Numbered from the stretch's first letter, positions 12,133 to 56,156 are shown. The stretch is 64,000 bases of DNA from a virus (IMGVR_UViG_3300042298_002704); one strand, 5' to 3'. Numbers and translations: made by a program. Notes: generated from the letters alone by a model not told the origin.

Positions 12133-12144
12133 GGATATTTATAT
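12133..12144 (+). promoter_or_regulatory. Late-type motif GGATATTTATAT
   Basis: 23 nt upstream of the 12167 start. Confidence 0.45.
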
Positions 12145-16349: not shown

Positions 16350-16362
16350 GATATATTTATAT
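16350..16362 (+). promoter_or_regulatory. Late-type motif GATATATTTATAT
   Basis: 35 nt upstream of the sheath start. Confidence 0.45.
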
Positions 16363-16396: not shown

Positions 16397-18244
16397 TTGG
16401 CTAACAGCAACGTTTTTAGCAGCCCGGGTGTATTCACACGCGAATTTGATTTGTCATTCAGACCTCTGGAAATCCCTGCGGTTGGTGCAGCAGTCATTGG
16501 ACCAACCGTTCGTGGTCCAGCGTTTGTACCGACACCTATTTCAACGTACAGCGAATATATTCGTTGGTTTGGAGACACTTTTATTTCCGGTTCCGGTGCA
16601 AGTGAGCGGATGTATAAATATTTAACTACCCATTGCGTGCAAGAATATTTGCGTTATGGTCAGGTCATCACCGTAGTTAAAATTTTAAATGCAGGATATC
16701 AACCAGCGTATTCGTATGTAATTAATTCTTCAAGTTATGCTACATTGTCGACTCTGAGTTCTGGCTCAGTAACGTTCGGCGCAAATAACATGGCGTTCAA
16801 AATAGTTTCACTTTCTGATGGTGAAATTATGAACTCTGGCCGTTTGGCCGCCGCCGTTTCAGGTTCAGGCGTAGCAGCAGAAGAAAGTACAAATAATTTA
16901 TTGTTGACTGGTTCGCAGTTCAATGCACGTTGGGAAATTGCAAACGTTGATCCATCTCGCGGTGTATTTGATTTATACATCCGTAGAGGCGATGATATTT
17001 CAAATAGAAAAGTTATTTTGGAACAATATTCGCAAGTAAGTTTGGACCCAAATACACAAAACTATCTCCCAAGAGTAGTTGGTGATATGGTTAATACTTT
17101 GAGATACGATTCCAATGGTAGCCCATACTTGGAACGTTCTGGTTCATTCCCAAATCGTTCCAGATTTATTCGTATTGAAGGTGTAAATAATACCTTAAAT
17201 TACATTAATTCAAACGGCGCTGTTAGAGATGCGAGTTTGTCAGGTTCTTTACCTGCGGCTGTATCTGGAACCTTTGCAGGTGGTAGCGATGGTAATGTTA
17301 TTCACCCTCGTGCAATGAATGAATTGATGTTTGCGACAAATACGCAAGGCTTTAATCCGGCATCTGCATCATGGGGTCAAACAGCGTATCAAGACGCAAT
17401 TGATATTCTTTCAAACAAAGACCAATACGACATTAATTTGTTATTTACTCCGGGATTGTTGGATAATGCAACTGGACACGGTTCAATTATTACCCGCGCA
17501 ATTAATATGTGCGAAGATAGAGGCGATGTTTTCTACGTTATTGATCCAACTTACAAAGGTTCAACAGTAGGACAAGCGCAATTAGCAGCCGAAGGTAGAA
17601 ATACCAACTACGCTGCAATGTACTATCCTTGGTGTCAAATCAACGACCCTGATTTGGGTAGAAATGTTTGGGTTCCGCCAAGTGCTATTATTTCAGGCGT
17701 TTATTCATTTAACGACTTGGTTGCGCATCCTTGGTACGCTCCTGCTGGTTTAAATCGCGGTACTCTTGATACCGTAGTTCAAACCGAACGTTTGATGACC
17801 CAAGGCGATAGAGATAATCTTTACATTAAATCAGTTAACCCGATTGCGACATTCCCGCGTCAAGGTATTACGGTTTGGGGTCAAAAAACATTGCAGAAAA
17901 AACAATCTGCTCTCGACCGGATCAACGTTCGTAGATTGTTAATTGATGCTAAACGGTTTGTTGCTTACACGGTTAAGTATTTGGTGTTTGAAAATAATAC
18001 CGTAGAAACTCGTGCAAGATTCATTGAATTGACCGATCCGTATTTCCGTAGAGTTAAGAACCAGCAAGGTCTTTACGATTACCGTATCATTATTGATGAA
18101 AGTAACAATACTCCAGACGTAGTTGATAGAAATGAAATGAGAGCGCAGATTTATTTGAAACCTGCAAAAACAGCCGAATTCATTATCGTTGACTTTGTTG
18201 TACTTCCGACCGGAGCATTGTTTCCAACGGATACAAACGAATAA
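16397..18244 (+). CDS. Tail sheath protein
   Basis: C-terminal sheath signature SGVYSFND...WYAPAGLNRG...NPIATFPRQGITVWGQKTL. TTG start with AAAGAGGA 8 nt upstream. GATATATTTATAT motif at 16350-16362. Lies just upstream of the tube gene. Confidence 0.9.
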   Translation: MANSNVFSSPGVFTREFDLSFRPLEIPAVGAAVIGPTVRGPAFVPTPISTYSEYIRWFGDTFISGSGASERMYKYLTTHCVQEYLRYGQVITVVKILNAGYQPAYSYVINSSSYATLSTLSSGSVTFGANNMAFKIVSLSDGEIMNSGRLAAAVSGSGVAAEESTNNLLLTGSQFNARWEIANVDPSRGVFDLYIRRGDDISNRKVILEQYSQVSLDPNTQNYLPRVVGDMVNTLRYDSNGSPYLERSGSFPNRSRFIRIEGVNNTLNYINSNGAVRDASLSGSLPAAVSGTFAGGSDGNVIHPRAMNELMFATNTQGFNPASASWGQTAYQDAIDILSNKDQYDINLLFTPGLLDNATGHGSIITRAINMCEDRGDVFYVIDPTYKGSTVGQAQLAAEGRNTNYAAMYYPWCQINDPDLGRNVWVPPSAIISGVYSFNDLVAHPWYAPAGLNRGTLDTVVQTERLMTQGDRDNLYIKSVNPIATFPRQGITVWGQKTLQKKQSALDRINVRRLLIDAKRFVAYTVKYLVFENNTVETRARFIELTDPYFRRVKNQQGLYDYRIIIDESNNTPDVVDRNEMRAQIYLKPAKTAEFIIVDFVVLPTGALFPTDTNE

Positions 18245-18255
18245 ATATAAAATTA

Positions 18256-18301
18256 CCTAACCTTGGATTATAAAAAAAGTTCAAGGTTAGGATATTTATA
18301 T
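18256..18301 (+). promoter_or_regulatory. Sheath-tube intergenic stem-loop overlapping the GGATATTTATAT motif
   Basis: Perfect 10-bp inverted repeat CCTAACCTTG/CAAGGTTAGG with a 15-nt loop. The motif is at 18290-18301, 22 nt before the tube ATG. Confidence 0.5.
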
Positions 18302-18322: not shown

Positions 18323-18796
18323 ATGCCAAGATTATTAACTCCGGAAGCGCACAATCCTATTTTGCAATTTCGGTATATGATTACAACTTCAAAGTTACCA
18401 AACGTTCAATTGTATGGAAAGGCTGCAACTCAGCCTACCCACCAATCAGCGCCCGTGACTGTCGAATATATCAATTCGTATTTCAAGGTTAAAGGTAAAT
18501 TAAGATGGGATTCCATAACGGTTTCTTGTTATAACTTTGAAGGAATTACTGCTTCGGAATTGTGGACGTATTTACAGGAACACCAAGCAGTTGATAGTGC
18601 GACTGATACACGCGCTCCATCATACAAACATGACCTTCAATTAATGTTGTTAGGCCCGGACGAAGCGCCTGTTGGTACTTGGAAACTCGTTGGCGCATTT
18701 TATGAAACTGTTGCTTACGGTACTCATGATCGCGGAACGGACGACGTTTCAGTTGCAGAATTGACTATCTGTTACGATTACGCAACTTATTCGTAA
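18323..18796 (+). CDS. Tail tube protein (T4 gp19-like)
   Basis: Sits directly after the sheath gene. MPRLLxPE..NP..QFRY N-terminus shared by two paralogs. GGATATTTATAT at 18290-18301. Confidence 0.8.
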   Translation: MPRLLTPEAHNPILQFRYMITTSKLPNVQLYGKAATQPTHQSAPVTVEYINSYFKVKGKLRWDSITVSCYNFEGITASELWTYLQEHQAVDSATDTRAPSYKHDLQLMLLGPDEAPVGTWKLVGAFYETVAYGTHDRGTDDVSVAELTICYDYATYS

Positions 18797-20137: not shown

Positions 20138-20431
20138 TTAAAGATTATTTGCGGCGCATATAGTTATCACATAACGACCGTTATATTTTTGAAAGATTGT
20201 GATGGGCGGATTAATTGCGTTAGATTTCATTTTTCCGTTTACATATTGACCCATAAACGCAGAGCGTTGCATATTTGGCCATTTACGCAATAACATCGGC
20301 CAATCCAATAATTTTCCTTTAACTCGTCGACCTTGAATCGACCGCCGCGCCGCAATATAGGTGTCGAAAATTCCTTCAATGACCGTCCAAGAATCTTGGT
20401 TTTTATCGACAGATACGACTATGTATTTCAT
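20138..20431 (-). CDS. Hypothetical protein
   Basis: TACTTTTG (TAnnTTTG) -7 box 29 nt upstream of the ATG at 20460-20467 (complement). Confidence 0.5.
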   Translation of the reverse strand: MKYIVVSVDKNQDSWTVIEGIFDTYIAARRSIQGRRVKGKLLDWPMLLRKWPNMQRSAFMGQYVNGKMKSNAINPPITIFQKYNGRYVITICAANNL

Positions 20432-20459: not shown

Positions 20460-20520
20460 CAAAAGTATAACCCTTTCAAATAACTACCAAACCTTTTAAC
20501 CTCATTAACAAATTATTAAC
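20460..20520 (-). promoter_or_regulatory. Bacteroidetes-type promoter (TTTG -33 / TACTTTTG -7) with three phased ATTAAC repeats upstream
   Basis: Read on the - strand: GTTAAT x3 at 10-bp spacing, TTTG, 20-nt spacer, TACTTTTG, then 29 nt to the ATG at 20431. Confidence 0.55.
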
Positions 20521-20523: not shown

Positions 20524-20557
20524 ATTAAAAAAGTTCCAGTTTAAGATATTTATATGT

Positions 20558-21040
20558 ATGCCAAGATTATTAATTCCGGGTTTATTTCAGCCAACATTAC
20601 AATTTCGTTACACCCTTTTCACCAATCGTTTGAAGGGTGCAATGTTCTATGCCTACGCATCAACTCAACCCGGATTTGATAATAGTCCCTTGGAATTACA
20701 TCACGGCAATGCAAGTTTCTTTGTTAAAGGAAAAACCAAGTGGAATCCAATTCAAATAAAATGTTATCAATTTGAAGGGATAACTTTTTTAGATTTTTGG
20801 GTTTATATGCAACAGCATCAAGTTACGGAAACTGCGACTGATTTATACGCAGAAACCTATAAACATGATCTAAGAGTTTCGGTAGTTGGCCCGGAAGAAA
20901 TTCCGGTCGGGACTTGGGTTTTGCATGGCGCATTTTATGAAAACGTCGACTTCGGACAAATGGATCGTTCAAGTGATGCCATAGCAGAAGTCAACGCTAC
21001 GATACGTTATGATTATGCGGTTTATAAACCGTTTTTTTAA
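20558..21040 (+). CDS. Tail tube paralog 2 (gp19/gp48/gp54-like)
   Basis: MPRLLIPGLFQPTLQFRY... aligns with the 18323 product through to YDYAVY. Confidence 0.75.
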   Translation: MPRLLIPGLFQPTLQFRYTLFTNRLKGAMFYAYASTQPGFDNSPLELHHGNASFFVKGKTKWNPIQIKCYQFEGITFLDFWVYMQQHQVTETATDLYAETYKHDLRVSVVGPEEIPVGTWVLHGAFYENVDFGQMDRSSDAIAEVNATIRYDYAVYKPFF

Positions 21041-21312
21041 TTTTTAATTACAAATCCTTTCATATGCTTTGCGCATTCTGGCCCAATATCAAAGCATCCT
21101 TGTGAATCTGCATCTGTTTCGACAGCGCACATTTCTTCTGAAATAGACGGATGCACCGCCAACCAATCCGTATTCATATGAACAGTATAGGCGTTTTGAA
21201 TATTTTTAATTGGCTTCATGCAACAGATGCATTGCGGCTCCGAAATAGTTCCGTATTTGTCTTCGTTCCTGTCTTTTACAGGACTTTCATACAGAGGCAT
21301 TGTCTTGTTCAT
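21037..21312 (-). CDS. Cys-rich small protein (possible zinc ribbon)
   Basis: Several Cys pairs (CICCMKPIK, CAVETD, GCFDIGPECAKH). Confidence 0.4.
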   Translation of the reverse strand: MNKTMPLYESPVKDRNEDKYGTISEPQCICCMKPIKNIQNAYTVHMNTDWLAVHPSISEEMCAVETDADSQGCFDIGPECAKHMKGFVIKN

Positions 21313-21337: not shown

Positions 21338-21401
21338 CAAAAGTATAACCCTTTCAAATAACTACCAAACCTTTTAACCTCATTAACAAATTATTAACTT
21401 C
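21338..21401. repeat. 64-bp intergenic module, copy 2
   Basis: CAAAAGTATAACCCTTTCAAATAACTACCAAACCTTTTAACCTCATTAACAAATTATTAACTTC. Confidence 0.8.
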
Positions 21402-21411
21402 GGAAATATAA

Positions 21412-21906
21412 ATGGCTCGTTTATCACCAGAACAATATAACCCCATTACAAGCTGGAGATTTAAAATCCAATTCAGTAGTTTACCCGATGTTGGGTTTTA
21501 CGCTAAATCGGTAACATTGCCTCAAATTGACAATTCCCCATTAACAATTGAGTACGGAAACACTCAAATGAAGATTAAGGGGAAAACCAAATGGAATGAT
21601 GTTGAAATGGTCATGTATGCGTATGAAAAAATGACCAACGAACAACTTTGGGAATATATGACGACATTACATCAAAAGGTTGATGATGGTACTGATTTTT
21701 ATGGAGAAAAATATAAACTCGATGTCATAATTCAAATCATGTCCCCGATGGATACCCCAATAGCAAAATGGACTTTGGTTGGTGCATTTGCTAATTTGAT
21801 TAACTTCGGGGAAATGGATTACGCAACAGAAGAAGTTGTCCAACCTCGTTTAACATTTAGTTATGATTATGCGCTTTACGAAAAACAAGGTTACCAGTTT
21901 ACTTAA
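21412..21906 (+). CDS. Tail tube paralog 3
   Basis: MARLSPEQYNPITSWRFKIQF... and C-terminal SYDYALYE conserved with the other two. Confidence 0.75.
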   Translation: MARLSPEQYNPITSWRFKIQFSSLPDVGFYAKSVTLPQIDNSPLTIEYGNTQMKIKGKTKWNDVEMVMYAYEKMTNEQLWEYMTTLHQKVDDGTDFYGEKYKLDVIIQIMSPMDTPIAKWTLVGAFANLINFGEMDYATEEVVQPRLTFSYDYALYEKQGYQFT

Positions 21907-22353: not shown

Positions 22354-22815
22354 TTAATGAGCAGTTCTCAAATCTTCCGTCGGACTTAAACTACATATTC
22401 CGTAATTTCTGGCTTGTGCATCTGAACAAGAAATACTGGCTTGAATTACACCAGTCGGACTCGACTCATCTTTAATATATAAAGAAACCGCATATTGCTC
22501 GGAGAACGGGAATTTGCATTTAACACGACCGTACAAAACGGTCTCATTTTCAAATAACAGTTTCAATTTCAAATCCTGTTCACACGCCAAACATTGCGCT
22601 TTCATTCGGTCATTATGTGTGAGGTCTATTGTTGGGATTAATTCGAATTCTTTTCTCGCATCAGTTAATGGAAAACTGGCAACATATCCATTAACAAACG
22701 TAAAAACAGCCGAAAATGAAGTTAAACCGCTATATTCGCTTTTAATTTTGATGACTTCGGCCTTTTGAATTTTATACCGAAAAGCATTTTTAGTGATATT
22801 TGCATCGAATTTCAT
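22354..22815 (-). CDS. Hypothetical protein
   Basis: 153 aa. TAnnTTTG-type promoter at ~22840. Confidence 0.5.
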   Translation of the reverse strand: MKFDANITKNAFRYKIQKAEVIKIKSEYSGLTSFSAVFTFVNGYVASFPLTDARKEFELIPTIDLTHNDRMKAQCLACEQDLKLKLLFENETVLYGRVKCKFPFSEQYAVSLYIKDESSPTGVIQASISCSDAQARNYGICSLSPTEDLRTAH

Positions 22816-22929
22816 CGTTTAAATCGTTTAGTGAATGAATACAACAAAGGTATATTCATTGATAATACAAACCAAACCTTTTAACCTCATTAACAAATTA
22901 TTAACTTTAAAACAAAATTATCCTGAAAA

Positions 22930-22941
22930 GGATATTTATAT
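22930..22941 (+). promoter_or_regulatory. Late-type motif GGATATTTATAT
   Basis: 30 nt upstream of the 22971 start. Confidence 0.45.
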
Positions 22942-23976: not shown

Positions 23977-23998
23977 TTCGTCGACTCCCATTTCTTTT
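23961..23998. terminator. Putative bidirectional terminator
   Basis: TGGGAG…CTCCCA 6-bp stem then TTTCTTTTT, between convergent genes. Confidence 0.4.
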
Positions 23999-24384
23999 TA
24001 ATCATCGTAATGTTTACCGTTTAGATGGGTGAAGAAATGTTCAATCATCTGTTCCATTACTGGAATAGTGATTTGAGAATATTTTCCAGATTCATTGAAC
24101 CATTGTACCAATGAAATTTCAATCGAATGAAATCCAAAATTAGGTACTTCAATATTGAAATGGATTGACGGCCAGAAGTTATGCAAAGATTCATCGTCTT
24201 GACCGTATAAATATTGAATCCAGCCAAACGATTCATTAATATTAATAAAATACCGTTTTGAACCGTCTTGGTTGTAGATACATTTTTGCCATTTACGACA
24301 AATATGGGGTTCTTCTACTGGATTTTCCTTCCAGCATTTGTAACCTCCTGCTTCTTCGAGAAGTTGTTTTGAAATTGTGATCAT
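23998..24384 (-). CDS. Hypothetical protein
   Basis: 128 aa. Promoter-like TACCACAAAAGTAAAGG plus ATTAAC repeats upstream. Confidence 0.5.
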   Translation of the reverse strand: MITISKQLLEEAGGYKCWKENPVEEPHICRKWQKCIYNQDGSKRYFININESFGWIQYLYGQDDESLHNFWPSIHFNIEVPNFGFHSIEISLVQWFNESGKYSQITIPVMEQMIEHFFTHLNGKHYDD

Positions 24385-24487
24385 CGTCTTGTTGTTTTTA
24401 AAATTCTACCACAAAAGTAAAGGCTCAGTCCATACGAACCAAGCCTATTAACAAACATTTAACATTTTTACTGTAAAATTACAAATT

Positions 24488-31273: not shown

Positions 31274-31495
31274 TTATAAATATACTTTTTTAAACTTTTT
31301 TCTTCCTATACGCTTTATCAAAAACGCTTCGTTTAAATCCGTATCGAGAAAAACCTGATATCGCTTTCCGTCTCGATCCAAATATTTTGCTTTTGATAAT
31401 TCCCAATTACAATTCTTCAAAATTTGAAGACTGTCGGAGTCTTGACTAAATACCAAGATGGGGGATACCAAAAATATAAATATCAATTTTTTCAT
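31274..31495 (-). CDS. Small secreted protein (trimmed so it does not overlap tRNA-Asp)
   Basis: Signal peptide MKKLIFIFLVSPILVFS. Confidence 0.45.
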   Translation of the reverse strand: MKKLIFIFLVSPILVFSQDSDSLQILKNCNWELSKAKYLDRDGKRYQVFLDTDLNEAFLIKRIGRKKFKKVYL

Positions 31496-33136: not shown

Positions 33137-33363
33137 AATTTTCAATTAAATTCAGTCATTAACTTTTTAATGACCTTTTTCTTCTGTTTTTTGTTCCAAA
33201 TGTTTAATTACATTACAAAGGTAAAAAACCTTTTTCAATTTACCAAGTCCATTAACATTTCATTTGGAAAAGGATTGGATTTAAGTTCCAAATTTCGGTT
33301 TCTAATTGAAAGGTACTGTTCAGAAGAAAATCCAATCCTCTAATCACAAACAACTAAACAAAC

Positions 33364-34963: not shown

Positions 34964-35040
34964 TTATTTTTTAAGCCCTCTATTCTAATAGACCTTAGAC
35001 TTTAAATCCTCATTCAGCCCTTTTACGCCATTTAATCTTG

Positions 35041-35115
35041 CATCTGTACGGGATTCGAACCCGCGTTTCCCGCTCCCGGGCGCTTTGACCGCTAAACTAA
35101 CAGACTCCTATCGAA
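35041..35115 (-). ncRNA. GC-rich tRNA-like element (good T-arm and acceptor, non-canonical body)
   Basis: Acceptor AGTCTGT/ACAGATG. T-arm GCGGG-TTCGAAT-CCCGT. Body CCCGGGAGCGGG does not give an anticodon arm. Confidence 0.25.
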
Positions 35116-35535: not shown

Positions 35536-35570
35536 TCCTATTATTTACAATACAAAGGTAAAAACATTTT
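35536..35570 (-). promoter_or_regulatory. tRNA-island promoter copy 2
   Basis: ~30-nt direct repeat of the 35374-35400 element. Confidence 0.45.
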
Positions 35571-35611
35571 TGATAACCACCAAATTATTTTTTACCGTTA
35601 ACATTCCGTTT

Positions 35612-35709
35612 AGACGTTTGTTTAGGAATCGAACCTAAAAATCTTCACATAATTAAATGTGGTCTTGTACCTAGGATTCGGTTGTTTTACCAATTAAACT
35701 AACAAACGT
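35612..35709 (-). ncRNA. Over-long (98 nt) tRNA-like element
   Basis: Acceptor ACGTTTG/CAAACGT. T-arm TTTAGG-TTCGATT-CCTAAA. D-like GTTT..AAAC. Internal CACAT/ATGTG hairpin. Length is inconsistent with a standard tRNA. Confidence 0.3.
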
Positions 35710-36026: not shown

Positions 36027-36399
36027 GAAAATTACTCAAAAAACCGAATAACTTTTTTGTCATTCTGACGGCGTTTTTTGGCTGTCTGTTTTTTGATCCA
36101 ACGGCGAGCGTGTTTACACCATTCGCCATTCATTTTCATGTTAGTTGCGTTCATAATATTAAGTTTAGTTTATCTGAAAGCGTTTAAGGATTTTTTTGTT
36201 TAATCATTTACGTCTACAACCTACTTGCTTTGTGGCCACTTGGACTGACTACCAAGAACTCGTGACTATCAATCATCGCGACGTTAATTAAACATCCTCA
36301 CTCCGTTTAACCATACGGAAATGGTTTAATTTCTTAGTACAAAGGTAAGTAAACTTTTTCAATCTGCCAAACCTTTTAACAACTTATTAACTTTTCTTT

Positions 36400-36547: not shown

Positions 36548-36583
36548 AATGTGCCATAAAGGTACAATCCTCTAAGGCACATT
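36548..36583 (-). terminator. Putative terminator after the 36692-36985 gene
   Basis: AATGTGCC…GGCACATT stem. A-run on the + strand gives a T-run on the - strand. Confidence 0.35.
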
Positions 36584-36691
36584 TCCAAATGTTTTTACAG
36601 TATTAACAACTGGTTAACATAGGCAGTGCCTCGGCTTATTGGATAAATAAAATCGTTCTTGTTTTTTCATACACATAAATATCCAAAATTT

Positions 36692-40612: not shown

Positions 40613-40662
40613 AGTACAAAGGTAAATAAACTAAAATTACAAAACAATACAAGAGATGTTAA

Positions 40663-41151
40663 TTACTTGTTAAACAACCGTTCGTTCAGAATTCGTTTAA
40701 TGAACCTTTGAACACCTTCATCTTTTGACATACCAGTACGTTCACTTTCATTCATATCGTACTCGCAAGTTGCGAGGTACATTAAATTTTGCAACTCATG
40801 TATTGTCAACTGAATAGGAGTTTGACTCATTAAAACTGAACAAGTGTCTTCTGAAATTTGTTCATATAGATCAATATTAAACCACCCCGGATTCGGAAGT
40901 TCAATGATAATATTATTCGACTCGGACCAGCATTTTACTGGTCGATCTTCTTCATTTAACCAAACAATTTCACGCTTTCCGTTATTCAAAATTCGAGTGT
41001 AAATTTTCATGGCCTTACCAAGTTTGTTAAGTTCATCTTTCACGGCTGGGAGAATGACAAATCGCTTCATTGGACTGTTACTTTCTTCCAAGTTCTTTAT
41101 TGCTTTGTTGAAAATTTCTCTCATATTTAAAAACGCGGTTAACCTATACAC
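40663..41151 (-). CDS. Hypothetical protein
   Basis: 162 aa. Confidence 0.5.
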   Translation of the reverse strand: MYRLTAFLNMREIFNKAIKNLEESNSPMKRFVILPAVKDELNKLGKAMKIYTRILNNGKREIVWLNEEDRPVKCWSESNNIIIELPNPGWFNIDLYEQISEDTCSVLMSQTPIQLTIHELQNLMYLATCEYDMNESERTGMSKDEGVQRFIKRILNERLFNK

Positions 41152-41424: not shown

Positions 41425-42444
41425 TTAATTGAAAAGTGCCAGTTCCAAACCTTTAATAGGAGTAATGTTTCTGGAAAGTGCAAGTTGTGCGGCTTTTTCG
41501 GTTGTTCCTTGATAACCAAGGTTCAAAACAGTTGAAAGCATCTGGTCTTCCGGACTATCAAAGTCTTTCGTACCCAAAAATCCTGTCACACCGTTAAATG
41601 CGCCCCATCCTGTGCCTTTAAATTCTTTTTGGCCGGGACCACTTTCGTAGTAAGAAAGCGCAGAAGTAATGATGTTTCGCTTCCGGGTTGAAATAATCGA
41701 ATCGCCTTCTGCATCCAAAATTTGACCAAGCGCAAGGGCTTCAATTTCTTCCCCGGTCAAAAATACATGACCAAAGAAATCGACTGGGTTAATTTGGATA
41801 TCTGACATTTGGTTGAACGCGTCACCAAGTATGGTTACGTTCTTTTCCAAAAGGCCCATCACTTTGACAAACTCGCGAATTTTTTCATTCGCACTTTGGG
41901 TGTGACGGAATGTGTACTTTTCTTTTGCGCCGCGCAATGCAGCGGTCAGCGTGTTGTTACAAACAACCCTGATTGGTGTAAAAATAACGCTAATTGGTGA
42001 AGTTCCATCAAAACTGTTGGTGAACAAGAGGTACATATCGGTTACGTCAGTTCCTTTTACCACCACCTGTTTATCCGATTTCATTGAAACAAACGAAATA
42101 GCACCGTCTTTAAGTACGCCAGCAGTTTCAATGTGAAATGGGAACTGGTTAACAATTGCAAGTGCGTCCGCGTTTTGAACCGGAGTGTAACGGCTACCTA
42201 CCGTTCCCAAAACTTTATGAGTGTCAGTACGCCAAGTAAAGAATGAACTTTCGCTGATGATTTCAATCTCGCCCATACGGTGAATGTTTGGCGATTTTTC
42301 AACGTGGTAATCAAGTCCGCCATATTGCATAGCGTCTTGAAGGTTGACTTGTTCGAGGATTGTACCAAACCCGTGCCAAGGTTTGATATTTTTGGAAACA
42401 AAGTCTCCGGTTTCGTTTTTCTGAAAACTAAGGTTATGTGCCAT
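41425..42444 (-). CDS. DUF932-like phage/plasmid protein (tentative)
   Basis: 339 aa. Length and general composition resemble the DUF932 family as I recall it. TACCTTTG promoter 22 nt upstream. Confidence 0.45.
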   Translation of the reverse strand: MAHNLSFQKNETGDFVSKNIKPWHGFGTILEQVNLQDAMQYGGLDYHVEKSPNIHRMGEIEIISESSFFTWRTDTHKVLGTVGSRYTPVQNADALAIVNQFPFHIETAGVLKDGAISFVSMKSDKQVVVKGTDVTDMYLLFTNSFDGTSPISVIFTPIRVVCNNTLTAALRGAKEKYTFRHTQSANEKIREFVKVMGLLEKNVTILGDAFNQMSDIQINPVDFFGHVFLTGEEIEALALGQILDAEGDSIISTRKRNIITSALSYYESGPGQKEFKGTGWGAFNGVTGFLGTKDFDSPEDQMLSTVLNLGYQGTTEKAAQLALSRNITPIKGLELALFN

Positions 42445-42462: not shown

Positions 42463-42527
42463 GTTAATTACTATACAAAGGTAAGGGAGTGTTTTTAAAC
42501 TTCCAAATGGATTAACAAGCCATTAAC
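42463..42527 (-). promoter_or_regulatory. Bacteroidetes-type promoter plus ATTAAC pair (11-bp spacing)
   Basis: TACCTTTG 22 nt before the ATG of the 41425-42444 gene. ATTAAC at 42511 and 42522. Confidence 0.5.
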
Positions 42528-42744
42528 ACAGTGAATGTTTTATAACTTGATTAAGATTTTCAAAAGTTCTTCCGTCAAATTTAGAATAGTTTGCAGTGCA
42601 ATAACCGGATATATTTCCGGAAATTGTGACCGATGCTTCGTATTGTTTTTCATTAACACTGAAATATACCGAACTGTTATCTTCGGTAAATTCAATATTC
42701 ATTTTAGTGAACTTTCTTTTTAAATTGTCAATTTTCATAATCAA
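42523..42744 (-). CDS. Hypothetical small protein
   Basis: 73 aa. Confidence 0.4.
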   Translation of the reverse strand: MIMKIDNLKRKFTKMNIEFTEDNSSVYFSVNEKQYEASVTISGNISGYCTANYSKFDGRTFENLNQVIKHSLC

Positions 42745-42928
42745 TTGTTTTTAATTACGATACAAAGATAAAGGCTTGATCCTTACGAACCAAGCCCATT
42801 AACAAACATTAACAACCTTTAAGAATTCATATTTCGGTAATGATCCCAATCATTATTATCAGTTGGGAATTTCAAATATTTGAATATAAAGATGATTGCG
42901 GCACAAAGGCCAATAAAGAATAGGATTT

Positions 42929-44584: not shown

Positions 44585-44896
44585 TTAAAAGAATTTATCG
44601 TTTTGTTGTGTGTACGGTTCAATTTTAATTTTTAATCCCAAGTCTTTGTTTCTGCCTCGGAATTTTTCGCGATCGTAATCGTTATTCATCATTTCAGTAT
44701 TTCGCCAATGTAAATGACCATTGTCATTATGATTCGTTTTACTTTTGGTCGTAACTGATTTATAAAGTTTCAAATCCTCGGCAGAGAGCATTTCAAGTTG
44801 TCGACGTTTCAGTTCCAAAAGAAACTTTTCAACCTCGGGTTCAGTACCAATAAAAGTTTCATTGATACTTCCGGTAACTTTAAGACGTTTAGTCAT
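44585..44896 (-). CDS. Hypothetical protein
   Basis: 103 aa. Confidence 0.45.
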   Translation of the reverse strand: MTKRLKVTGSINETFIGTEPEVEKFLLELKRRQLEMLSAEDLKLYKSVTTKSKTNHNDNGHLHWRNTEMMNNDYDREKFRGRNKDLGLKIKIEPYTQQNDKFF

Positions 44897-45077
44897 ATTG
44901 AAAGTTAAAGGTTAATGAAACAAACACTCGTTCAAGTATTGTTTCGGGCGTTAAGGCTTTATACGCACGATCAATGGTTGCGTAAATTTTAAAATTGCCG
45001 TTTGGAAAGGTAACTTTCCACGCTTGTGTCATACCATCAGGGACGGCATCATAATAACAAGGTGATTTCAGGTTCAT
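44889..45077 (-). CDS. Hypothetical small protein
   Basis: 62 aa. Confidence 0.35.
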   Translation of the reverse strand: MNLKSPCYYDAVPDGMTQAWKVTFPNGNFKIYATIDRAYKALTPETILERVFVSLTFNFQYD

Positions 45078-45157
45078 TTTTTTAAAAGTTTATTTGTTAA
45101 TTACAGTACAAAAGTAAAACCTAAAAATGAATTAACCAAACACATTAACATTTCATT

Positions 45158-45619: not shown

Positions 45620-45660
45620 AAACTTCAAAGGTTAAGCCCTAACCGGCGGGCCGCCGTTTA

Positions 45661-45721
45661 ATTACAGTACAAAGGTAAAACCTAAAAATGAATTAACCAA
45701 ACACATTAACATTTCATTAAC
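45661..45721 (-). promoter_or_regulatory. Bacteroidetes-type promoter with three ATTAAC repeats at 12-bp phasing
   Basis: On the - strand: GTTAATG x3, TTTG, ~20 nt, TACCTTTG, then ~40 nt to the start. Confidence 0.55.
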
Positions 45722-47690: not shown

Positions 47691-47844
47691 TTATTTTGTT
47701 TAAAAAAGTTCAAATATCTAAAAAAATTATTTGCGCGATGAGAACAGGTATTACGCCTCGGTAGAAACACTGAAAATCGCACAGGAAACGCTAAATTAAG
47801 GGGTGTATGGGCGCAATTTAACCCCTAAAACACCCCCCTATATT

Positions 47845-48057
47845 TTAACGTTCTATTAACATTTCATTAACCTTCGTATTCTGGAAACCAAGGTTCATCG
47901 GTAGGACAATCGTACAGATAATCGTCTGAACAATTAGGAGCGCAAATTGCCCTACAATCGACTTAGGCATTTGTTGATCCATTGGAATAAAGGTTTGAAA
48001 TTTATTTCTTGAATATTCATGGTGATTTGAATTTAAGTTTTTAGTTGTAAAAGCCAT
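47845..48057 (-). CDS. Hypothetical small protein
   Basis: 70 aa. Confidence 0.35.
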   Translation of the reverse strand: MAFTTKNLNSNHHEYSRNKFQTFIPMDQQMPKSIVGQFALLIVQTIICTIVLPMNLGFQNTKVNEMLIER

Positions 48058-48298: not shown

Positions 48299-48631
48299 TT
48301 AAAGTTCAAAACACGCCTCCAAATCCATGTTCAATAAATCTTTGGAAGTGATGGCGTGCTTATTGTGATCAACAGCATATTCGTAAACGATATATTCAAT
48401 TGCAGCAATAATTGCTCCGCGCTTAGAATAAATGGCAGGTTCATCATCTGCCCAACCATTGTAACAACCACGAACGTCACGATCTCGCTTACACGCATCT
48501 TCGTACCATTCGTCAAACAAATATTCAACAGCCTTGAAGATGGTTGATTTGGGAGAAACCTTATTAGCATCAAACCATTCAGTGTCGATGACTTGGGTTC
48601 CAAAGTTCTTGGTGATAATTCTGATTTTCAT
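48299..48631 (-). CDS. Hypothetical protein
   Basis: 110 aa. TACCTTTG promoter at ~48653. Confidence 0.5.
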   Translation of the reverse strand: MKIRIITKNFGTQVIDTEWFDANKVSPKSTIFKAVEYLFDEWYEDACKRDRDVRGCYNGWADDEPAIYSKRGAIIAAIEYIVYEYAVDHNKHAITSKDLLNMDLEACFEL

Positions 48632-49266
48632 AATCGTTGTTCGTTTTAATTACAGTACAAAGGTACAGCCCGGAACAATACGAACCAAACCTTTTTAAAA
48701 CTTTAACATTTTATTAACAGAAATTCCCGATCCTGATTACAGTTTATCAGTCGGGCTCGAGGTTCATATTAGGAAATTGATTCAGAAATTGGACTATTTT
48801 GTTCGGTCCTTAAATGCGGGTCACCTCTGTGATAGTGCATAGACGTTACTTAAAAAGGTTCAATTTCAAAGAAAAAACAAATCATTTACTAAACTTTTCT
48901 GTATTCCGTACTATGATTCAGCACCACCTGTTAATCGACTCATCAGCCAAAAGGTTCAATGATTTAATATAAATATCCCCAATAAAATTAAAACATTCAT
49001 TTTTACAATCATGGTAGTACATTAATCTTCATCATCCCATTCATCTTCTTCAATAATTGAAAGTATTTCAAAACCAATTACCTGACCAAATACTTCTATT
49101 TCAAATATAAATCCATCCTTAGATAAACTTATTTTTAATTCAAACCATGACAGAAATGAATCCCTTGTCAAGGTTGTACTATAAATGGAAGTATTTCTCT
49201 CCCCATCATGAGTTATTATTCCGAATTCAATTGTTCCAGAGTCAATTTGAGTGTAACATTATTTTG

Positions 49267-52608: not shown

Positions 52609-52926
52609 TTATTCGCAATTACACGCTGACGGGTAAATTTCCATAAATTTTTTCAAATTTACCGGAGTGTTTGGATCGTTCAAAACTCGTTCTTGTGATT
52701 GAACAAATTCCCAGTTCAGTTCGTCGGGACAACCCCAAACTTCTGTAACAAGAGTATCAGAATATAACACAAACGTTTCATCTCCAGACTCATTGCTACT
52801 CGGAGGGCACCATGTATAACTGAATTGGATGTATGTGCATTTTGCACGATAGTTGTCGCAGTCAACTTTCTGCTTTTGACAGGCAATGGTTGAAAGAACG
52901 ATGATAAAGAAAAACAGTTGTTTCAT
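52609..52926 (-). CDS. Small lipoprotein-like secreted protein
   Basis: Signal MKQLFFFIIVLSTIAC. Several Cys. Confidence 0.5.
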   Translation of the reverse strand: MKQLFFFIIVLSTIACQKQKVDCDNYRAKCTYIQFSYTWCPPSSNESGDETFVLYSDTLVTEVWGCPDELNWEFVQSQERVLNDPNTPVNLKKFMEIYPSACNCE

Positions 52927-52998
52927 TTTTTATTTGTTTTAATTACACCACAAAGATAAAAGTATTTATTTCAAATTTCCAAATGGATTAACAACTCA

Positions 52999-53583
52999 TT
53001 AACTACCTTGTTCATTTATAACTGAAAGCGTTCCTAAAAATCCAATCAATTTATTATTTACATCTCGCAATTGATATGCAACTCCATGAACTTTTTGAAA
53101 TTTACCAGACGGGAGAACAAAACGGTATTCCATATCAAAGTTTAAATCATTTTGAACACAACGATACCACTCTTCAAATACATCATCTTTTTCATCAGGA
53201 TGAATCCAATTAGACCAGTTATCTCCTTTTATTTCACCCTCAGTTCGACCTATTATTTTACACAAAGAACGATTGACATCTATACACTTTCCTCGTTCGT
53301 CACTTATCCAAGTTCCAAGTGGTAAGGATTTAATAATTGCTATCGTCTTTTGTTCCTGCAATGTTATCTTATCTTCGATCCTATTAATTGCATCTCTTAA
53401 AGTTGAACCGCCGTTTGGCCTAAATTCTTCTGCCATCTTTTGAATCTTTCCGTATAATTCCCTTCCTTCCTCATATCTTTGTTTTAACCAAAATTTCCAT
53501 AAAGCGCCGCCGACAATTCCAAATGGGGCTAAAAGTGAGAGCCATTCTTTTAGTACGATTAAAATTGATTTAAAAAATTCCAA
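52999..53583 (-). CDS. Membrane-anchored PAS-domain protein
   Basis: N-terminal TM (ILIVLKEWLSLLAPFGIVGGALW). PAS-like block WISDERGKCIDVNRSLCKIIGRTEGEIKGDNWSNWIHPDEKDDV…FVLPSGKFQKVHG. Confidence 0.55.
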   Translation of the reverse strand: MEFFKSILIVLKEWLSLLAPFGIVGGALWKFWLKQRYEEGRELYGKIQKMAEEFRPNGGSTLRDAINRIEDKITLQEQKTIAIIKSLPLGTWISDERGKCIDVNRSLCKIIGRTEGEIKGDNWSNWIHPDEKDDVFEEWYRCVQNDLNFDMEYRFVLPSGKFQKVHGVAYQLRDVNNKLIGFLGTLSVINEQGS

Positions 53584-55165: not shown

Positions 55166-55654
55166 TTATAGGGGGATTAATTTCTTATATACCCAATACA
55201 AATCTTCCATCGAACCTTCAAATGTTTGAAAATCAAATGGACTGACATCGAACTTGAATGCTCTATTTAGTTCCAATTCAAGTTCATGTAGTAATTTCAA
55301 CTCATGTTGGCAATGGGCTTCTGCCAGTTTTCTGTTTTCTTTATTCCACTTGGCTCTCCTGACAATGAACCAATCTTCAAAGGCTTCTTTACTTGCAAGT
55401 TTGTTTTTCTGTTTCCATTCAACTTGCTCGTGTTTGAAAAGTTGATTATTTTCTTCAACCATTTGTAAATATGGACTTTCATTAAATTCTCCGTTTCTAA
55501 TACGGTAAAGAATCAAATGTTCATTTTCTCCAAAAGGAACTTTCTTTAACTTCGGTTTTGAAGTAGTTTGACCTTTTCGCCAGTAATTAAATTGGTTGAA
55601 TGACATATAAATATCTTTTAAGATTTTCTTAACATTTGTAAGTAGTAATTTCAA
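55166..55654 (-). CDS. Hypothetical protein
   Basis: 162 aa. Confidence 0.5.
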   Translation of the reverse strand: MKLLLTNVKKILKDIYMSFNQFNYWRKGQTTSKPKLKKVPFGENEHLILYRIRNGEFNESPYLQMVEENNQLFKHEQVEWKQKNKLASKEAFEDWFIVRRAKWNKENRKLAEAHCQHELKLLHELELELNRAFKFDVSPFDFQTFEGSMEDLYWVYKKLIPL

Positions 55655-55798
55655 ACGAAATAAACTACAATTTTAACAAGCATTAACAAAAGTTTAACAA
55701 ATAAAAAACCCCATCCGACTTGTGAAAGTGAACGGGGACATAATAAGTAATTTATTTATTACATTGGCGGAAAATTACAATACTCTGATTTTTTTGGT

Positions 55799-56059: not shown

Positions 56060-56156
56060 TTTTAAAAATTTAAGTGTGATGCCTTGCGGCGTTTTGTTAG
56101 GACAAATGTACGTTGACGTTTGTAAACAACCAAACTCATTAACAATCATTAACAAA

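Follow-up and report, generated by a model that had tools for sequence, protein, structure and literature searches.

Organisation of the locus and of its promoters

The DNA analysed is a stretch of 64,000 nucleotides (nt), called the window below, from the virus IMGVR_UViG_3300042298_002704. It is the setting of a recurrent promoter in which phased GTTAAT hexamers (the boxes; ATTAAC on the other strand) stand upstream of a core of Bacteroidota type, and the − strand copy at 45656-45721 is taken as the index site. The window is part of the 163,381-bp metagenomic contig Ga0453721_0000011 and its G+C content is 35%. Structural genes form a + strand block at 1-19 kb, with the tail sheath gene at 16397-18244, and the remainder is a long − strand block of small open reading frames (ORFs) and 18 tRNA genes. 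Among the 80 ORFs found between 19 and 64 kb, Pfam and PHROGs recognised T4-like tail-tube and baseplate proteins, amidases, an Hsp20, a PAS-domain protein and homing endonucleases. Among isolates, the 160-kb Flavobacterium phage vB_FspM_immuto (immuto below) comes closest, with a relatedness that is apparent at the protein level only (46% amino acid identity of the tail sheath). An 8-kb query gave no Megablast match in 50,697 phage records, and there is no close sequenced isolate among them.

An original prediction, made by a model from the sequence alone, had placed a promoter with a TAnnTTTG motif and phased boxes in front of nearly every − strand gene or tRNA cluster. The recurrent grammar is real, and all the coordinates listed there are true instances. 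Fifteen intergenic − strand sites follow the grammar GTTAAT-N5-GTTAAT-N3-(T)TTGG-N19/20-TAnnTTTG, usually continued by tactGTAATTAAAAC, while at three further sites the box array lacks a core or has its boxes reversed (Table 1). Two layouts were found, box-N5-box-N3-(T)TTGG and box-N5-box-N3-box-N3-TTTGG; in both, TTGG is followed by 19-20 nt, TAnnTTTG, about 4 nt and (G/A)TAATTAAAAC, a short A-rich leader. The index site, read on the − strand, is cGTTAATgaaatGTTAATgtgTTTGGttaattcatttttaggtttTACCTTTGtactGTAATTAAAC. Measured from the T of TAnnTTTG, boxes start 33, 42-45 and 53-54 nt upstream, and these offsets recur across promoters. Relative to the presumed start site the boxes thus lie at roughly −40 to −60, which corrects the −45 to −70 initially proposed. 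The spacer is N4 in three cases, with the third box at a 9-nt step, and in two promoters a further box (offset 20) overlaps the −33 element.

Two or more boxes at 9-11 nt spacing precede TTGG and an exact TAnnTTTG at 11 sites. The site at 36557-36618 is a twelfth with a box pair, its −7 motif being TACCTTTA (36557-36564), and a single such box is present at three sites (45109-45149, 33216-33256 and 35553-35602). An exact TAnnTTTG, mostly TACCTTTG or TACTTTTG, is therefore found in 14 of the 15 box-bearing core sites. The arrays at 47844-47871 and 55672-55698 lack the −33/−7 core, and the reversed boxes are those of 40617-40674. All sites lie in gaps or at ORF ends, upstream of − strand ORFs or tRNAs; the genes that follow are small hypothetical ORFs and tRNA clusters. 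The first ATG is found 24-50 nt past the −7 motif, mostly 24-31 nt, a distance that replaces the 4-40 nt suggested before. As some 15 promoters serve about 95 − strand ORFs and 18 tRNAs, "nearly every" gene was too strong a statement, and the promoters appear to head operons.

The statistics leave little room for chance. GTTAAT-N5-GTTAAT, with at most one mismatch, occurs 14 times in the window against 1.38 expected, 13 times on the − strand, and none of 100 shuffles reached 14. TTGG-N18-21-TAnnTTTG occurs 15 times against 2.11 expected, with 14 copies on the − strand. When the pairs were widened to GTTAA[ATC] with N4-6 spacing, 19 were counted, 16 of them on the − strand. They are not equally common inside coding sequence: 11 of the 19 are mostly intergenic on a rough gene map in which intergenic DNA makes up 10.9% of the sequence (binomial P ~9×10−7), and the others touch weak or over-extended ORFs at their ends. 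When − strand hexamers of non-coding and coding DNA were compared without bias, TACCTT (6.7-fold) and GTTAAT (5.3-fold; 28 versus 14 occurrences) ranked at the top. When the information per position was computed over 18 distinct promoters taken from the window and from its relatives, the maxima fell on the proximal box, TTGG and the −7 motif, with flat spacers.

The core, TTTG or TTGG followed after 19-20 nt by TAnnTTTG, agrees with the Bacteroidetes sigma-A consensus, as had been noticed from the start. It is highly likely a Bacteroidota −33/−7 promoter read by host RNA polymerase with its primary sigma factor. The attribution of the host to this phylum, first drawn from the core, is borne out by the relation to immuto and by the genome scan below, in which 11 of 13 matches fell in Bacteroidota.

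Two smaller points concern the DNA downstream of the core. Short inverted repeats, seen by eye and not by folding, come after the promoters at 45677 and 36347; none is evident at the other sites. The ATTAAC within the leader GTAATTAAAAC was considered as an inverted box for looping and rejected, because the number of A residues varies and immuto has the leader without boxes.

The same boxes precede rprXY operons

Direct repeats of the form hexamer-N5-hexamer, with an 11-bp period and abutting the −35 analogue, are the classical form of sites for regulators of the OmpR/PhoB family; examples are the PhoP box (TGTTTA-N5-TGTTTA), the CpxR box (GTAAA-N5-GTAAA) and the WalR box. One genome per species (185,579 species) was scanned for the composite GTTAAT-N5-GTTAAT-N3/4-TTGG-N18-21-TAnnTTTG, which gave 13 matches. 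Three independent ones lie directly upstream of a sensor-kinase gene, in a Spirosoma (L030), a Draconibacterium (L036) and a Bacteroidetes metagenome-assembled genome (MAG; L037). In the latter two the kinase gene is followed by that of an OmpR-family regulator, and the Spirosoma sequence ends inside the kinase. The best NCBIfam match of both regulators is RprY (E values of 1e-79 and 1e-91 for L036 and L037). Given one such operon per few thousand genes, 3 of about 8 independent loci cannot be due to chance.

A second set of loci was chosen without regard to the boxes: 80 metagenome loci were fetched by similarity of the regulator protein alone, and the DNA upstream of the adjacent kinase gene was examined. 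Their regulators pass the RprY equivalog cutoff (390-448 bits versus 370), and 78 of 82 regulators have the recognition helix RSMDV[YF]I[TA]KLRK, to which two close variants (VTK, TKI) can be added. In the 49 non-redundant regions upstream of a kinase gene, GTTAA[ATC] occurred on the gene strand 2.26 times per 200 nt, compared to 0.25 at 85 other genes of those loci, a difference of about 9 fold. The total upstream of kinases was 114, versus 19.3 (+/−4.4) in shuffled sequences. The mean was at least two boxes in 8 of 12 kinase clusters (60% identity), and in the clusters with zero boxes another gene sits directly upstream. Boxes at rprX lie 64, 55/53, 43/42, 33/32, 23/22 and 2 nt from the −7 motif, one helical turn apart, and four loci from distinct clusters match the phage register of 53-54/42-45/33 (64/53/43/32 in L100, 63/42/32 in L041, 42/32 in L104 and 64/43/33/16/2 in L116).

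Identical boxes in the same register at bacterial rprXY operons point to a host regulator of the OmpR/PhoB family rather than to a generic UP element, and give substance to the suggestion of the original prediction that the array is a candidate binding site for a host or phage factor. The box module has the features by which an OmpR/PhoB operator is recognised in DNA, namely direct half-sites 10-11 bp apart centre to centre, a fixed register and boxes at rprXY-like operons, and may be called a putative operator. We consider the chances about even that the box promoters are host RNA polymerase promoters with tandem candidate sites for the host protein RprY.

The competing view that the boxes are a Bacteroidota-style UP element, with sub-sites at about −42 and −53 touched by two C-terminal domains of the alpha subunit and no regulator involved, has position in its favour: the box centres match the proximal and distal UP sub-sites established for E. 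coli (about −42 and −52), the boxes are A/T-rich, and the otherwise similar cassette of immuto has an A-rich tract in that place. Against this, the G is conserved and the hexamer is exact while the spacers vary freely, which argues for sequence-specific recognition and not for A-tract geometry. Neither should a general polymerase contact be gene-specific, as the 9-fold difference between rprXY and ordinary genes implies, and at rprXY boxes are also present at −22, −2 and +17, beyond the reach of alpha. We find a simple UP element quite improbable.

The scan also found the full composite upstream of other chromosomal genes. In four related Bacteroidota MAGs (L028, L031, L033, L034) the gene presumably encodes, to judge by its sequence, a DUF5916-like exported protein; the first of these is labelled Bifidobacterium breve and looks like a Bacteroidota contig. 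The others (L027, L032, L035 and L025/L029) include a Capnocytophaga gene and what are presumably a pair of DUF1573-like lipoproteins, a 2-oxoacid:ferredoxin oxidoreductase operon and an ABM monooxygenase beside a TetR gene. All these genes may be members of the same regulon.

At many rprX loci (L100, L041, L116, L043 and others) the first ATG is only 4-5 nt past TAnnTTTG, which suggests either leaderless kinase mRNAs or a mis-assigned start codon.

Box promoters within the phage group

In relatives with 77-83% amino acid identity in the neighbouring protein, boxes are kept at the orthologous divergent promoter while the spacers differ. Boxes are also kept in the relatives L121-L123 at the position orthologous to 22845-22905; in more distant relatives boxes are absent from the stretch available. 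A scan of viral DNA with a 17-base pattern returned 24 stretches. Those with the full grammar (L017, L013/L019/L020 and L024) are relatives of the present phage and hence not independent evidence; in the other groups (L001 type, L007 type) boxes are present and the core spacing differs. These groups comprise unrelated viral or integrative-element contigs with GTTAAT-N5-GTTAAT-N3-TTTGG. In one, made of IMG/VR contigs of about 52% G+C (L007, L014, L022, L023), TACCTTTG lies one helical turn further off, upstream of a small ORF and of what by eye is an integrase-like gene; contigs of the L001 group have no −7 motif after this sequence and carry arrays of TTAACA repeats nearby.

Some promoters of the window are similar well beyond their motifs: three groups of near-identical cassettes of about 60 nt were noted, 20460/21338/22845, 45109/45670 and 24412/42763. 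Repeated early-promoter cassettes drive modular shuffling in T4-type phages (PMC2839356). One could thus imagine mobile promoter cassettes homogenised by recombination, in which the boxes have no separate function. The remaining copies have only the boxes, the −33 and the −7 in common, with unrelated spacers; boxes persist at orthologous promoters of relatives despite diverged spacers; and the link to rprXY would go unexplained. We regard mere cassette spread as very improbable indeed.

In the early region of immuto (L137, record at 60-77 kb), about 20 copies of a cassette aaaaAGTTGC-N19-TATATTTAGGTATCAATAATTAAAAC were found, with the leader of the window promoters. Core and leader without boxes in this phage indicate that the first two are common to the phage group and that the boxes are a separable add-on, not a universal one. 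Around position 67,400 of the same record there are three 18-nt repeats with GTTAAA in each.

The structural genes carry another motif instead, (G)GATATTTATAT, so the box promoters form a non-late class, used at a stage when the factors at hand would be those of the host. This second motif occurs 18 times (at most one mismatch) against 3.75 expected, upstream of the + strand structural genes, and looks like a late-promoter class, by analogy with T4 TATAAATA. It lies about 0-45 nt upstream of structural genes (904-914, 12134-12144, 16352-16362, 18291-18301, 20545-20555 and 22931-22941 on the + strand) and of a few − strand genes (31474-31484, 48967-48977 and 55605-55615).

Could the boxes be operators of a protein of the phage itself, either a middle-class activator or a repressor for early shutoff, so that the resemblance to rprXY is mimicry or coincidence? 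T4-type phages are well known to encode regulators of their own promoter classes, and the present phage combines T4-like tail and baseplate genes with a separate late-type motif. Core-less arrays such as 47844-47871 and 55672-55698 are what operators with other roles would look like, and the boxes are confined to a sub-clade of relatives that leaves out immuto. Yet no helix-turn-helix, winged-helix, sigma or other recognisable transcription factor was detected by Pfam and PHROGs among the 80 ORFs at 19-64 kb, nor did phmmer searches of all six-frame ORFs of the window with the two RprY-like proteins reveal a regulator homologue. A phage operator would also leave unexplained the same hexamer, spacing and register at rprXY promoters of several Bacteroidota orders, and if the box promoters are the earliest, no phage activator would be available yet. 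We judge it unlikely that a phage protein is the cognate factor.

A MotA-like middle promoter was also considered and rejected, because the box promoters retain the −33 TTTGG and have their boxes upstream of it. The PAS-domain protein of the phage was excluded as a DNA binder, being membrane-anchored.

Proposed mechanism and points against it

In the model that we favour, host RNA polymerase with its primary sigma factor would recognise the −33 TTTG(G) / −7 TAnnTTTG core, and a winged-helix regulator of the OmpR/PhoB family, most likely host RprY, would occupy the tandem GTTAAT boxes as a head-to-tail dimer, or as three protomers, at about −40 to −57. From these promoter-proximal sites it would recruit or stabilise RNA polymerase in the manner of OmpR-type activators. 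The outcome would be strong, non-late promoters coupled to the state of a host signalling system. We infer the binding of RprY to the phage boxes, its activating effect and the early action of these promoters; the model fits the type of site, the evidence of host genomes, a window in which no candidate phage factor was found, and the non-late gene set.

A stronger version can be put forward only tentatively, as we do not quite expect it to hold: GTTAAT-N5-GTTAAT would be the RprY operator itself, and the phage lineage would have copied the architecture of the rprXY promoter onto a whole promoter class. Early and tRNA expression would then depend on, and report, RprXY activity, and the roughly 40 boxes per genome copy could titrate the regulator and aid host shutdown.

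RprX is present in other oral and enteric Bacteroidetes besides Porphyromonas gingivalis (PMC5706477), and rprX/rprY was the only essential two-component system in transposon sequencing of B. fragilis (PMC4072883). In P. gingivalis the promoters to which RprY binds are its own and also those of nqrA, ahpC and chaperone genes (PMC5706477); groES, dnaK and clpB are among the promoters bound.

Several points speak against a role of RprY as activator at these promoters. We infer that it is RprY which binds the bacterial GTTAA boxes (autoregulation): no published operator or consensus sequence for RprY was found in the searchable literature, and GTTAAT occurs in two RprY papers only inside primers. 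The two regulators next to composite matches score 267 and 304 bits, less than the RprY equivalog cutoff of 370. The count of 13 composite matches is not far above a rough expectation with real sigma-A promoters as background; the signal of that scan lies in the identity of the downstream genes and not in the number of matches. The loci fetched by protein similarity come mostly from related gut Bacteroidales and not from Flavobacteriia, the likely host class; the annotation of Flavobacterium psychrophilum includes an rprY gene (PMC5350093). With cores as close to consensus as those of the phage already are, an activator may be unneeded. The cassettes of immuto have an A-rich upstream region and no GTTAAT pairs. 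With 73 kb of the 163-kb phage genome covered, a box-binding protein of the phage could lie in the other 90 kb or so, a region that also counts in favour of the phage-operator explanation.

Two further points call the sign of the effect into question. In Bacteroidales boxes occur most often at −64 and −2, a placement that suggests repression in addition to activation, and repression of its own promoter and of that of nqrA has been described for RprY of P. gingivalis (PMC5706477). Host RprY might bind the phage boxes as a brake which, when highly active under stress, represses these promoters and delays development, as Spo0A does with phi29. The box over the −7 motif (offset 2) of many Bacteroidales rprX promoters and the extra box over −33 (offset 20) in two phage promoters fit such a brake. 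The dominant phage offsets (33, 42-45 and 53-54) do not: they are upstream of −33, in the classical activating position of OmpR-type regulators, and leave the core free. Moreover, at the rprX promoters of L100, L041 and L104, whose register is phage-like, no −33 element is recognisable, which is typical of activator-dependent promoters. A braking role thus seems to us distinctly unlikely. Boxes that overlap the −7 motif (GTTAATTTTG) are a frequent sight at Bacteroidales rprX promoters.

Comparison with described systems

No published description of the combined element was found in the searchable literature, in keeping with the remark of the original prediction that it was not a recognised one. 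The primary-sigma promoters of Bacteroides and Flavobacterium have the same core elements, 19-20 nt spacing, short leader and orientation to the gene. Their published consensus has no defined upstream element, whereas the phage sites fuse tandem boxes to the −33. With OmpR/PhoB sites (PhoP, CpxR and WalR boxes, OmpR C3/F3) the module has in common direct hexamers with N5, two or three of them in phase and just upstream of the −35 analogue. It differs in that GTTAAT is not among the described boxes, the cognate RprY is a candidate, and some 15 copies are present in a phage genome of virulent type. The E. coli UP element is similar in position (about −40 to −60) and in having two sub-sites one helical turn apart, and different in being made of A/T tracts, not of an exact G-containing hexamer that is gene-specific in host genomes. 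T4 middle promoters are likewise a class defined by an extra box for a specific protein; there the MotA box takes the place of the −35, at −30, and sigma appropriation is required, while here the −33 is intact and the boxes are upstream.

Phage-borne sites for a host two-component regulator, through which phage transcription follows the physiology of the host, have precedents: Spo0A reportedly represses Bacillus phage phi29, and PhoB is said to act on pstS/phoA, auxiliary metabolic genes of cyanophages. In both, few promoters are concerned, and here it would be a whole class that includes tRNA clusters. To our knowledge, phage promoters with sites for host response regulators are only known as isolated cases, and transcription control in Bacteroidota phages is almost unstudied. 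A whole promoter class with regulator boxes, and the candidate RprY operator, both appear undescribed.

The PeSL early-promoter cassettes of the T4-type phages RB49 and phi1 (PMC2839356) offer another parallel, with promoter-bearing units of at least 50 nt that recur almost unchanged among the small early genes of a T4-like myovirus; some window cassettes may likewise have a stem-loop after the promoter (45640-45655, 36310-36330). Host phylum and core consensus differ, and the window cassettes hold a tandem-box module in common with host chromosomal promoters.

If the boxes are RprY sites, they would provide a testable operator for a two-component system which is conserved in the phylum and essential in B. 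fragilis, an instance of a lytic-type phage with an entire promoter class tied to a signalling pathway of its host, and a simple sequence signature that predicts host phylum and promoter class in uncultured phages. If they are UP-like or operators of a phage protein, a clean definition of a promoter class in a 163-kb Flavobacterium-type myovirus would stand, of more local interest. Strong portable promoters for Bacteroidota are in demand.

Individual sites and additional observations

Table 1. Box promoters and box arrays of the window. All are on the − strand; figures in brackets after the boxes are offsets, in nt, from the T of TAnnTTTG.
Position	Boxes	Core	Context
45656-45721 (index)	45716-45721, 45705-45710; third, 45692-45697, overlaps −33	TTTGG 45697-45701; TACCTTTG 45670-45677; leader tactGTAATTAAAC down to 45656	GC hairpin cggcggcccgccg downstream; first in-frame ATG ~50 nt past −7 motif
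20460-20520	GTTAAT, GTTAAT, GTTAAA (53/42/33)	TTTGG + TACTTTTG	Heads 20138-20431; divergent from + strand tail-tube-like gene
21338-21398	Three; cassette nearly identical to 20460-20520		Heads 21037-21312
22845-22905	Three; cassette family of 20460-20520		Heads 22354-22815
24412-24463	Two (44/33)	cTTGG + TACTTTTG	Heads 23998-24384
33216-33256	One (33)	cTTGG + TACCTTTG	Upstream of tRNA-Lys and tRNA cluster
35553-35602	Single GTTAAC (42)	Sigma-A type	Within tRNA region
36340-36391	Two (44/33)	TTTGG + TACCTTTG	Upstream of tRNA-Tyr
36557-36618	Two (54/43)	TTTGG + variant −7 motif TACCTTTA	
40617-40674	Two, reversed (TTTAAC, ATTAAC on − strand)	TACCTTTG after the boxes	ATG 4 nt past −7 motif
42476-42527	Two (44/33)		Heads DUF932 gene 41425-42444
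42763-42813	Two (43/33; N4 spacer)		Heads 42523-42744
45109-45149	Distal box degenerate (GATAAA); near-identical to index cassette		Heads 44889-45077
47844-47871	Three, GTTAAT/GTTAAA, 11-nt spacing	No −33/−7 core	
48658-48718	Two (53/42), third degenerate	TTTGG + TACCTTTG	Heads 48299-48631
52951-53003	Two (45/34)	TTTGG + TATCTTTG	Heads 52609-52926; overlaps 3′ end of PAS-domain ORF
55672-55698	Three	No canonical −7 motif	Late-type GATATTTATAT further on, 55605-55615
56103-56153	Two (43/33; N4 spacer)	TTTGG + TACATTTG	

In the 9 kb beyond the right end of the window no further box promoters were found. Two of the arrays have structured surroundings. At 47780-47871 (− strand) the boxes are followed by a G-rich inverted repeat (ggggggtgt...acacccc) and by about 100 nt of relatively G+C-rich non-coding DNA upstream of an ORF of 299 amino acids; Rfam gave no match there, and the segment is possibly a regulatory site or a small RNA. 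At 55605-55740 (− strand) a terminator-like hairpin (ccccgttcac...ggatgggg followed by a T run) directly precedes the three boxes, after which the late-type GATATTTATAT stands in place of a −7 motif, and both promoter grammars are juxtaposed.

Three tail-tube-like paralogues of the gp19 family, 35-50% identical as judged through matches in the relatives L019/L020, are encoded on the + strand at 18323-18796, 20558-21040 and 21412-21906. The last two are each divergent from a three-box promoter, with small − strand genes interleaved.

Rfam detected only tRNAs in the window. Two of its matches on the − strand, at 35040-35106 and 35614-35708 (39.8 and 40.5 bits), are extra tRNA-like sequences without an ARAGORN call; the second, of 95 nt, may hold an intron or be a degenerate copy.

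The PAS protein (52999-53583, − strand) has 194 amino acids, with an N-terminal hydrophobic segment and a PAS domain at residues 81-187 (Pfam E value 1e-13). Comparison with the RprX kinases gave no detectable similarity. It looks like a histidine kinase reduced to its sensor half, and might still interfere with host signalling.

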